From the NCBI RefSeq assembly GCF_044324875.1, contig NZ_CP172185.1: DNA of 64,000 nt. One strand, 5' to 3'. The position numbers and the translations under genes were made by a program. This DNA comes from Escherichia coli. Lineage in GTDB: Bacteria; Pseudomonadota; Gammaproteobacteria; Enterobacterales; Enterobacteriaceae. The notes under the pieces were generated by a model. It saw nothing but the letters and a program-made list of their open reading frames with translations, had not been told where the DNA came from and ran no database searches. Below are positions 39,965-44,084 of the stretch, in pieces (within the stretch, counting starts at the first letter, position 1; each line of letters opens with the position of its first letter).

Positions 39965-40015
39965 TGAACTGCACCCCAAATGTTGGACATAATCTGACAT
40001 CTGAAGGTGCAGTTT

Positions 40016-40537
40016 ATGAAACATTCATTTGAAGTAAAACTTGCCGCTGTAAATCATTACCTGGCCGGTCATGCAGGCATCATTTCTACGGCAAAACTCT
40101 TTCAACTTTCTCACACCAGCCTCTCACACTGGATTAATCTTTTTCTTCTTCACGGTCCTCGGGCACTGGATTGCAGACACAAGCGTAGCTATTCTCCTGA
40201 AGATAAACTTTGCGTGGTTCTTTATGCTCTCGGGCATTCTGAGTCTCTACCCCGGGTAGCTGCCCGGTTTAACATTCCCAGCCACAACACGGTTAAAAAC
40301 TGGATAAAAGGCTACCGCAAATCTGGTAATGAGGCCTTTATCAGGCGCTGGAAGGAGAAAAGCATGACCCGTTCTGATGATACCCATGAAAACGAGGCAA
40401 ACATGACGCCGGAAGAGATGAAGAATGAGCTGCGTTATCTTCGCGCAGAAAATGCATATCTGAAAGCCATGCAGGAGCATCTCCTGGAAAAAAAGCGCCA
40501 GGAGCTGGAGAAAAAACGAAAGTCATCCGGAGCCTGA
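40016..40537 (+). CDS. IS3-family transposase OrfA (HTH and leucine-zipper part)
   Basis: 173-aa ORF (MKHSFEVKLAAVNHYLAGH...), followed by orfB in the -1 frame. Confidence 0.85.
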   Translation: MKHSFEVKLAAVNHYLAGHAGIISTAKLFQLSHTSLSHWINLFLLHGPRALDCRHKRSYSPEDKLCVVLYALGHSESLPRVAARFNIPSHNTVKNWIKGYRKSGNEAFIRRWKEKSMTRSDDTHENEANMTPEEMKNELRYLRAENAYLKAMQEHLLEKKRQELEKKRKSSGA

Positions 40538-40639
40538 GGTGCGGATACTGCCAGTCTGATCTGTTAAAGGCTGCAGGGCTGGCCAGAAGCACGCTGTACT
40601 ACCAGCTGTCACTGCAGAAGGCTAAGGACAAGTATGCTG
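40538..40639 (+). pseudogene. 5' fragment of IS3-family orfB, cut by the IS21-family insertion
   Basis: The -1 frame reads LRCGYCQSDLLKAAGLARSTLYYQLSLQKAKDKYA and stops at the IS21-like left end. Confidence 0.5.
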
Positions 40640-40839
40640 CAAAATGGCATCTGAATCGATCGCAGTTTGGCATTCGAATCGATCATGATTTGGCATCCAT
40701 CTCCGATCACAGTTTGGCATCACAATCGATCACGATTTGGCATGCTTCCGATCATTGATTGGCATCCTGCCAGTCACTCCGGGAATTAACTCTTTTCACC
40801 ACAGTCTCCATTGCCGTGTTTAAACCAGTGGAGACGTCA

Positions 40840-42405
40840 ATGTCCAGAAAGAGAAAATCCAGGAGCACTATGGAAACCTGTTTTAAGATCCTTCAGCTCA
40901 AGTTCGACAAGAAGCTGACTAACCGTTGTATCGGACTGACGTTACACATCAGCGCCTCAACCGTTTTTGAGGTTCTTGCCCGCTTCAAAGCCTCTTCTCT
41001 GTCATGGCCATTACCTGCTGATATATCCCATGACACGCTGGAGAAACTCATTTTTCCGCCCAAAGACACCTTTGCATCAGAGCTTGTAATGCCTGACATG
41101 TTGTACTTCGATACGGAAATGAGAAAACCAGGTGTGACGCGGCAACTGTTGTGGATGGAATACAAGGCACAGGCGGGTAACAAAGCGATGGGATACTCGC
41201 ACTTCTGCCGTTGCTACCGGGAGTGGAAAAAAACGCGACGTCTCTCCATGCGCCAGGAGCATCGTGCCGGCGAAAAGCTTTTTATCGACTTCTGTGGTCC
41301 TACGGTTCCTGTTATTAATCCGGACACCGGTGAGATACGCCGCGTGGCAATCTTCGTGGCCGTAATGGGGGCGTCCAACTATACCTACGTTGAAGCGTGC
41401 GAAGGTCAGGACATGATGTCATGGTTAAATGCCCACAGCCGTTGCCTGACCTTCCTGGGCGGCGTACCGAAGCTGCTCATCCCCGATAACCTCAGAAGCG
41501 CAGTGAAAAAGGCCGATCGATATGAGCCTGTCATCAACGACAGTTATCAGGCACTGGCTGAGCACTATGGCACGGTTATCATCCCGGCCCGACCACGCAA
41601 ACCTAAAGATAAACCAAAAGCAGAAAACGGCGTCCTCATCGTTGAACGATGGCTTCTTGCCCGCATCCGTAATGAAACCTTCCACACGCTCAGGGCGCTG
41701 AATGCGCGCCTTAGGGAGTTACTGACAGACATGAATAACCGGCCAATGAAGGGGTACGGCAATCAAACCCGTGCAGAACGCTTCCGCATACTGGATGCGC
41801 CAGCACTCTCTCCGCTGCCTCTGGCACCTTATGAATACACGGAATACAAAGCTGTGAAGGTTGGCCCTGACTACCACGTTGAATATGCCCGTCACTGGTA
41901 CTCCGTTCCACACGAACTGGTCGGTCAGCGTCTGTCACTGAAGGCGGGGCAGTCGGTGGTACAGCTCTGGCACAAGGGGCAGTGTGTGGCGCAACATCCG
42001 CGCAGCACACATGAATATAAACACACAACCAATCCGCTTCACATGCCAGAGCGCCACCGGCAGCACGGGACATGGACACCGGAACGCCTGATCGAGCAGG
42101 GAAAACGTACGGGCCCGTCCACAGGCCGGGTGGTTGAATCCATGCTGAAGGCAAAACCCCATCCGGAACTGGCTTATCGTGCAGTTCTGGGGCTGCTGGC
42201 ACTTCAGAAAAAATACGGCCCGGAACGGCTGGAAAAGGCCTGTTACGTTGCCCTGCACTATAACGCCCCTGACAGACGCTTTATCGACAATCTGCTGCGT
42301 CACCATCGGGAGAACCTGGAGCTTCCATTATCCCGCCAGGGCGAACAACATCCGGCATATGCTTCAGAGCATGAAAACCTGCGTGGTCCGGGCTACTACC
42401 ACTGA
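40840..42405 (+). CDS. istA: IS21-family transposase IstA (HTH and DDE integrase)
   Basis: ORF 40759..42405 with an HTH N-terminus and integrase core; start chosen at MSRKRKSRS and uncertain. Confidence 0.8.
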   Translation: MSRKRKSRSTMETCFKILQLKFDKKLTNRCIGLTLHISASTVFEVLARFKASSLSWPLPADISHDTLEKLIFPPKDTFASELVMPDMLYFDTEMRKPGVTRQLLWMEYKAQAGNKAMGYSHFCRCYREWKKTRRLSMRQEHRAGEKLFIDFCGPTVPVINPDTGEIRRVAIFVAVMGASNYTYVEACEGQDMMSWLNAHSRCLTFLGGVPKLLIPDNLRSAVKKADRYEPVINDSYQALAEHYGTVIIPARPRKPKDKPKAENGVLIVERWLLARIRNETFHTLRALNARLRELLTDMNNRPMKGYGNQTRAERFRILDAPALSPLPLAPYEYTEYKAVKVGPDYHVEYARHWYSVPHELVGQRLSLKAGQSVVQLWHKGQCVAQHPRSTHEYKHTTNPLHMPERHRQHGTWTPERLIEQGKRTGPSTGRVVESMLKAKPHPELAYRAVLGLLALQKKYGPERLEKACYVALHYNAPDRRFIDNLLRHHRENLELPLSRQGEQHPAYASEHENLRGPGYYH

Positions 42406-42421
42406 CAGAAGGAACAACAGT

Positions 42422-43177
42422 ATGAGTGATAACCTGTTAAACAAACTGACCCAACTGAAACTCCCGGCGATGGCCGGGAGCCTGATACGGCAGCGGGAAA
42501 CGCCTCAGACCTACGACGAACTGTCGTTCGAGGAAAGGCTGACGCTGCTGGTTGATGACGAGCTTCTGAGCAGGGAAAACAGCCGTGTGGCACGGTTGAG
42601 AAAAAATGCCGGCCTGAAATACCAGGCAACACCGGAAGGGCTGCGCTATCCGGCCTCAAGAGGTCTGCGGGCTGAACAGATGAGAGAACTGCTGAACGGC
42701 CACTACATAACCCACAGGAAAAACCTGCTGATAACCGGTCCGACAGGATGTGGCAAGAGCTGGATAGCCAATGCGCTGGGCGAACAGGCATGTCGACAGA
42801 AACACAGCGTCCGGTACTGTAGAACCGGGCGATTACTGGAACAACTGGCTCAGGGACGTGTTGATGGCAGCTGGCTGAAATATCTGAAACAGTTGCAAAA
42901 AATACAGGTTCTAATCCTGGACGATCTGGGGCTGGAACAGTTAAGTAACGCCCAGTGTAATGACCTTCTGGAGCTCATAGAGGATCGTTACGGACAAAGC
43001 AGCACGATAGTGGTAAGCCAGTTCCCGGTAGATAAATGGCATGGTCTGATGGAGAACCCAACAACAGCAGATGCCATCCTGGACAGACTGGTACATAACT
43101 CACACCGAGTGGTCCTTCAGGGAGAGTCACTGAGGAAAAATCCCCCGGTAGTGGAAAGCAGCGAAAAAACGCGTTAA
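42422..43177 (+). CDS. istB: IS21-family helper ATPase IstB
   Basis: Walker A GPTGCGKS and Walker B (LILDD); internal ATG of ORF 42179..43177, 17 nt after the istA stop. Confidence 0.85.
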   Translation: MSDNLLNKLTQLKLPAMAGSLIRQRETPQTYDELSFEERLTLLVDDELLSRENSRVARLRKNAGLKYQATPEGLRYPASRGLRAEQMRELLNGHYITHRKNLLITGPTGCGKSWIANALGEQACRQKHSVRYCRTGRLLEQLAQGRVDGSWLKYLKQLQKIQVLILDDLGLEQLSNAQCNDLLELIEDRYGQSSTIVVSQFPVDKWHGLMENPTTADAILDRLVHNSHRVVLQGESLRKNPPVVESSEKTR

Positions 43178-43284
43178 AAAGCGGTAGAAAAAGTTAAGTT
43201 CCCGGTTGATCGAATGGATGCGAATCGCTGATCGGACTTCGATGCCAATCCGTGATCGAATAGAGCGGAATACGCAGTATGCTG

Positions 43285-44020
<736 letters not shown>

Positions 44021-44041
44021 TAGGTTTTGGGGTTCAGTTCA

Positions 44042-44058
44042 TTCACGCCGCATCCGGC
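44042..44058. repeat. Right half of the REP palindromic unit split by the IS insertion
   Basis: ttcacgccgcatccggc; joined to 39949..39964 minus one ttc copy it restores a canonical REP. Confidence 0.6.
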
Positions 44059-44084
44059 ACAAACAATCAAATATTACAGAACGA

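Follow-up and report, generated by a model that had tools for sequence, protein, structure and literature searches.

Multiple phased repeats at the ends of an ISSso4-type IS21-family element nested in IS1397 as probable binding sites for the IstA transposase

An IS21-family element inserted in IS1397

The 64-kb stretch of Escherichia coli DNA analysed here (the window) contains an istA-istB gene pair within an insertion sequence that has itself landed in another insertion sequence. The genes, the limits of the element and its flanks are as follows.

40007-40537: IS1397 orfA, in the left flank
40632-40637: target-site duplication, left copy, GTATGC (6 bp, from sequence reading)
40638-43278, + strand: complete IS21-family insertion sequence, classed by nucleotide identity as an ISSso4 isoform (2641 bp, TG...CA termini)
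40870-42405, + strand: istA, DDE transposase, 511 aa from the PGAP start
42422-43177, + strand: istB, AAA+ helper ATPase, 251 aa
43279-43284: target-site duplication, right copy, GTATGC (6 bp)
From 43285: fragment of IS1397 orfB, in the right flank

We fixed the ends of the element by comparing the window with seven independent copies at unrelated sites. All eight copies start with TGCAAAATGG and finish with GAATACGCA, and a repeat search recovers the two arms of the element as imperfect terminal inverted repeats. The target duplications of the other copies are 4-7 bp long (GCTAAGC, CTCAGGC, GTCAGT, CACG, CTTGAA, GTAAAGC and ATGAGCA); across the IS21 family, such duplications measure 4-8 bp.

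Both proteins belong to well-defined families. IstA scores 284.7 bits against the NCBIfam model transpos_IS21 (cut-off 160), contains the Pfam domains rve and Mu-transpos_C_2, and matches the cryo-EM structures of IS5376 IstA (8B4H/8Q4D) at an E value of 6e-14 in a phmmer search. IstB scores 257.8 bits against the NCBIfam model IS21_help_AAA (cut-off 200) and matches Pfam IstB_IS21 with an E value of 2.4e-60. The element thus carries the set of features by which the IS21 family is recognized: istA followed directly by istB, TG...CA termini, short target duplications of variable length, and multiple terminal repeats spaced by about 23 bp. An earlier note on this DNA had placed the repeats at IS21-family ends. 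That assignment holds, as they lie exactly inside the element ends set by the eight insertions and IstA and IstB both pass their NCBIfam cut-offs.

PGAP uses the ATG at 40870 as the start of istA. A second in-frame ATG at 40840, 10 codons upstream, would give a 521-aa IstA, and Shine-Dalgarno-like sequences precede both codons (GGAG for 40840 and AGGAG for 40870). In seven relatives with a long IstA, paired in-frame Met codons also occur at the N terminus, at a distance of 7 codons. In IS21, two in-frame istA starts, 8 residues apart, yield the transposase and a shorter 'cointegrase' (PMC10122671); judging by the sequence, the paired ATGs in the window appear to mirror this pair. Upstream of them, a 10-bp inverted repeat at 40804-40835 (GTCTCCATTG...CAGTGGAGAC) could fold into a hairpin, with the GGAG of the 40840 ATG in its 3' arm. 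Its folding z-score is only -1.9, and it may limit translation of read-through transcripts. A promoter scan of 40500-43400, including the left end, found no sigma-70-like promoter, so an istA promoter could not be placed under the repeats, and autoregulation of istA is left without a defined target.

The interrupted element is a copy of IS1397, of the IS3 family, which occupies 40007-40637 and 43285-44066 of the window. It is split downstream of orfA and upstream of the part of orfB that encodes the integrase core. The match to IS1397 stops near 44066. Almost every E. coli chromosome contains a match to the ~230 bp that follow, which makes a chromosomal location of the window probable. The same nesting is present in one complete genome, that of strain EC13 (NZ_CM169488.1).

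A megablast search recovers the 2.64-kb unit from 509 plasmid records, with 100% identity in many of them, and PGAP labels the plasmid copies 'IS21-like element ISSso4 family'. Among 5426 complete E. coli genomes, about 215 carry a near-full-length copy. Over its full length, the window element is 96.3% identical in nucleotide sequence to a copy in Shigella sonnei that PGAP annotates as 'ISSso4 family'. By ISfinder convention, nucleotide identity above 95% denotes an isoform, and by this measure the window element is an isoform of ISSso4. The two share the TG...CA ends, the arrays of six repeats on the left and three on the right, and an IstB annotated as 'ISSso4 family'. They differ by ~4% divergence, and PGAP calls the IstA of the window variant only 'IS21 family transposase'. 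The window copy is also set apart by its nesting in IS1397. Nesting of another kind occurs in plasmid pAST19_1 of E. coli AST19 (L025 533-4027), in which an ISSso4-type copy is interrupted within istA by IS100, one IS21-family element within another.

Repeats at the two ends

Nine repeat units and two inner inverted boxes occupy the ends of the element.

40638-40662, + strand: L1, terminal repeat including the TG cleavage end, TGCAAAATGGCATCTGAATCGATCG
40663-40685, + strand: L2, CAGTTTGGCATTCGAATCGATCA, missing together with L3 from four-repeat variants
40686-40709, + strand: L3, TGATTTGGCATCCATCTCCGATCA
40710-40732, + strand: L4, CAGTTTGGCATCACAATCGATCA
40733-40754, + strand: L5, CGATTTGGCATGCTTCCGATCA
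40755-40776, + strand: L6, innermost and degenerate, TTGATTGGCATCCTGCCAGTCA, without GATC
40779-40797, + strand: left inner inverted box, directly inside the left array, CCGGGAATTAACTCTTTTC
43187-43205, - strand: right inner inverted box, directly inside the right array, GAAAAAGTTAAGTTCCCGG on the + strand
43207-43229, - strand: R3, reverse complement GCGATTCGCATCCATTCGATCAA, first box diverged
43230-43253, - strand: R2, reverse complement CGGATTGGCATCGAAGTCCGATCA, the best copy at the right end
43254-43278, - strand: R1, terminal repeat including the CA cleavage end, reverse complement TGCGTATTCCGCTCTATTCGATCA

Reading of the sequence gives a left array of six head-to-tail units, each 22-25 bp long, that fill 40638-40776 at a spacing of 22-24 bp. 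The earlier note had described direct repeats of about 23 bp at an IS21-like left end and counted six of them between the insertion point and istA. We recover both the period and the number. Tandem Repeats Finder reports a period of 23 over 40645-40766 (4.3 copies, 72% matches), a repeat search places five left copies in register at steps of 23, 24, 23 and 22 bp, and the degenerate L6 completes the six. The span of 40640-40790 that had been given for the array does contain it, but L1 starts at 40638 and the inner limit overshoots by ~14 bp. This excess holds part of the inner inverted box at 40779-40797.

Two conserved boxes recur in each unit, ATT(T)GGCAT and (T/C)CGATCA, with 5-7 variable nucleotides between them. 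Within the ~23-bp unit, the boxes lie about one helical turn apart. The repeat form proposed earlier, nTTTGGCATnnnnnnnCGATCA, approximates this arrangement, treating as fixed a gap that varies from 5 to 7 nt. A fixed-gap pattern, TTGGCATN8GATC with 2 mismatches, gave 13 matches against 22.9 expected, which is below chance. Because the gap between the boxes varies, we used a variable-gap pattern instead. TGGCATN{6,9}GATC matches the 64-kb window 7 times against 0.92 expected, a count reached by none of 100 shuffles. Five of these matches are L1-L5 and one is an inverted copy at 43230-43247, which puts six of the seven in the two element ends. L6 reads CCAGTCA in place of CCGATCA, and it is kept in every variant examined.

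The left array also has a higher-order period. Over the same interval, 40645-40766, Tandem Repeats Finder reports a period of 47 (2.4 copies, 83% matches), and the repeat search aligns L4 plus L5 with L2 plus L3 at 84% identity. Apart from an upstream TTG extension of the istA frame, no open reading frame runs across the array, and we rejected a reading of the units as coding repeats.

At the right end, three inverted units fill 43207-43278 with steps of 22 and 24 bp, so that the ends are asymmetric, with six repeats on the left against three on the right. When the left and right arms are paired in inverted orientation, one pair extends over 48 nt at 75% complementarity and three pairs over 18 nt at 89%. 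Inverted copies had been anticipated at 43200-43276. All three are there, but they are weaker than that description implied, since R2 alone has both boxes intact. R1 and R3 retain TCGATCA, and their diverged first boxes read TTCCGCTC and TTCGCAT. The first 10 nt of R1 match the family-wide terminus, TGCGTATTCC/TGCGGATTYC, exactly, and L1 and R1 are only ~56% identical to each other.

The two inner boxes, at 40779-40797 and 43187-43205, are 74% complementary over 19 nt. At each end, a gap of 1-2 bp separates this 19-bp inverted box, CCGGGAAYTTAACTYTTTTC, from the innermost repeat on its outer side, and the box is kept in a Salmonella relative that is 84% identical to the window element. Its bottom strand, AATTCCCGG, resembles the family first-box core ATTCC in the opposite orientation. 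At the equivalent place, ISAs29, IS1162 and ISEc12 carry full repeats in inverted orientation. We considered the box as a site for IHF and rejected it by eye, as the consensus did not fit.

Distant relatives and natural variants

To place these ends within the family, we compared seven relatives whose IstA is 42-48% identical to that of the window element: ISEc12, ISAs29, ISSpu5, ISBmu3, ISFK1, IS1162 and an element of Pseudomonas sp. 7-41. A seed search covered the DNA that precedes istA and the DNA that follows istB. An element-specific motif occurs in all seven, in 2-5 copies on the left and 0-4 on the right, compared with six and three in the window element, and its copies recur at 23-bp steps in every relative except ISBmu3. 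In ISBmu3, the seed matches at the left end only, and the right-end copies were read from the sequence. At the left end, the window element and six relatives have their top autocorrelation lag at 23 bp, and the seventh relative, ISBmu3, has it at 21 bp. Autocorrelation at the 23-bp lag is 0.41-0.55, against a null maximum of ~0.33 +/- 0.02.

These long-IstA relatives share with the window element not only the left-end period (six of seven) but also the terminus, TGCGTATTCC/TGCGGATTYC, and the paired Met codons. The core of the first box, ATTYC/ATTTGG, is common to the family, and the second box is specific to each element. Some relatives (ISAs29, IS1162 and ISEc12) have inverted-orientation copies within the left end. 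IS100, whose IstA is short, carries a pair of TGATCCAC-type repeats at each end, with spacings of 25 and 34 bp. The earlier note had staked its reading on the presence of such repeats at the ends of related IS21-family elements, and all seven relatives and IS100 carry them. A common layout filled with differing repeat sequences is what co-evolving protein-DNA recognition would predict.

The array also varies among close copies of the element. At least ~30 plasmid records hold four-repeat variants that lack exactly 47 bp, corresponding to L2 plus L3. We compared six variant left ends (L017, L021, L022, L024, L018 and L023) with window positions 40663-40709. The four-repeat variants lie at two separate sites, flanked by distinct 6-bp target duplications (GCCAGA in L017/L021/L022 and GTCAGC in L024), an arrangement consistent with L2-L3 being dispensable. 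The variants could also have lost the 47 bp after insertion, rather than having transposed in that form. The repeat adjoining L1 varies by lineage, which suggests that four-repeat variants arose independently. A further left end was found on a plasmid of Serratia sp. JSRIV004 (L019 1501-1564), where a solitary fragment with three ISSso4-like repeats (TGCAAAATGGCGTC...) adjoins chrA. No istAB genes lie downstream of this fragment, which is a remnant or else a short non-autonomous derivative.

This variation raises the question of how many of the six left repeats matter. One explanation holds that the array is a neutral product of slippage or unequal recombination, built by duplication of a two-repeat unit of 46-47 bp, and that only the outer two repeats are functional. 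It accounts for the 47-bp period and the 84% identity between L2 plus L3 and L4 plus L5, for natural variants that differ by exactly one 47-bp unit, and for relatives that manage with 3-4 left repeats. However, the six-repeat form is the majority and is retained both in ISSso4 (96%) and in the 84%-identical Salmonella relative. In the latter, whose R2 has a 9-bp deletion, conservation of the array (85% identity) is on a par with that of the coding sequence (84%). In addition, L3-L5 keep both boxes despite 16% divergence between the duplicated units. We therefore regard a purely neutral origin as unlikely, while giving it some weight.

Recognition of the ends by IstA

A second explanation accepts the repeats as IstA sites but proposes that they are gated by Dam methylation or SeqA, with hemimethylation after passage of the replication fork timing transposition. 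IS10 and IS50 are established examples of such timing. A GATC lies in the second box of each of the eight good repeats (at 40658, 40681, 40705, 40728, 40750, 43208, 43230 and 43254), and the repeats of the enterobacterial elements ISEc12 (GGAGATCG) and IS100 (TGATCCAC) contain it as well. Yet the eight sites repeat a single motif and thus count as one observation, and the clustering of GATC is not distinctive in itself, as three other 140-bp stretches of the window (~4536, 33843 and 59013) also hold 5 GATC, as many as the left end of the element. Among the relatives, the repeats of ISAs29 and ISSpu5, here from Aeromonas and Marinobacter, have no GATC, and those of ISBmu3 have it in Burkholderia, a host not known to have Dam. 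The literature that we searched yielded no link between Dam methylation and IS21, and we consider gating of this kind improbable.

Two broader ideas seem to us similarly doubtful. In one, GATC-linked binding of IstA would be sensitive to Dam or SeqA and would couple transposition to replication; in the other, the number of accessory repeats, four or six, would tune transposition or istA autoregulation. Neither Dam/SeqA coupling nor tuning by repeat number was reported for the IS21 family in the literature searched.

That the array consists of plasmid-type iterons, or is a GATC-rich, origin-like (SeqA/DnaA) module merely adjoining the insertion sequence, is almost certainly wrong: direct repeats of 22-24 bp, each with a GATC, lend it a superficial likeness to such modules, but the array invariably travels together with istAB between the same TG...CA bounds, to unrelated sites and with fresh target duplications, has inverted copies at the opposite end of the element, shares its layout with distant IS21 relatives of other sequence, and lies between the halves of IS1397 with no rep gene nearby.

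Given these comparisons, we are confident that the repeats are the multiple terminal IstA binding sites of an ISSso4 isoform that inserted in IS1397 and duplicated GTATGC. We infer binding of IstA to the window repeats from homology and layout, and the published work on the family provides the template. The terminal inverted repeats of IS21 consist of multiple direct repeats (L1/L2 and R1/R2), 23 bp apart, that are bound by IstA (PMC10122671). In IS5376, two complete repeats per end are needed for integration (PMC10122671, Spinola-Amilibia et al.). The IS5376 IstA tetramer places its catalytic subunits on R1 and its structural subunits on R2, and each repeat has two elements, CS1 and CS2, ~10 bp apart, that are contacted by HTH-2 and HTH-1 (PMC10122671). 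The phasing of the repeats permits two right-handed crossings between the ends, and the target duplication is 5 bp (PMC10122671).

IS5376, from Geobacillus stearothermophilus, resembles the window element in its 23-bp direct repeats, the two boxes in each, the terminal CA and the order of istA and istB. Its ends are described with two repeats each, compared with six plus three in the window element, and its IstA is 400 rather than 511 aa long. The two elements have unrelated box sequences, and the target duplications of window-type copies vary from 4 to 7 bp, in contrast to the 5 bp of IS5376. The phmmer alignment to IS5376 IstA covers only residues 75-373 of the 511-aa protein, so any assignment of HTH-1 to DNA in the window IstA is an extrapolation.

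By analogy with IS5376, the pair of HTH domains at the N terminus of a single IstA monomer would read the two boxes of a repeat. An IstA tetramer would then synapse the ends through the outermost repeats, L1-L2 and R1-R2, with the DNA wrapped into crossings that resemble negative supercoils and that the 23-bp phasing would favor. Cleavage would occur at the terminal CA, and the target would be delivered by IstB. L3-L6 and R3 would most likely serve as accessory sites, and the inner repeats could set the left end apart from the right end.

In published work, IstA binding occludes promoters at the ends (PMC10122671), and IstA bound to the region upstream of istA in the window element could likewise repress its own expression. 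We infer both the division into core and accessory sites and this autoregulation. Given that L1 and R1 are only ~56% identical and that the first box has diverged in R1 and R3, the nine units need not all be bound equally.

Similar ends are known outside the family. Phage Mu (L1-L3/R1-R3) and Tn7 (TnsB sites) also have several transposase sites per end and unequal ends, and they encode a DDE transposase with tandem HTH domains together with an AAA+ helper. The analogy between IS21 ends and the multi-site ends of Mu and Tn7 has been drawn before (PMC10122671). Mu and Tn7 belong to other families, however, and space their sites irregularly, in contrast to the strict 22-24 bp phasing of the window element.

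The repeats are the known multiple terminal repeats of the IS21 family, and the kind of feature is therefore not new. What appears to be undescribed in the literature searched is the six-plus-three split of sites, the 47-bp polymorphism, the inner inverted box and the presence of a GATC in each good repeat. At this locus, the array is properly annotated as the termini of an ISSso4-type element rather than as a repeat array, iterons or a CRISPR-like feature, and the exact ends at 40638 and 43278, with the target duplication, show that IS1397 was interrupted. For the family, IS21 members with a long IstA have up to six phased sites on one end, compared with two in the solved structure. The natural four- and six-repeat variants offer a ready comparison for the role of the accessory sites.
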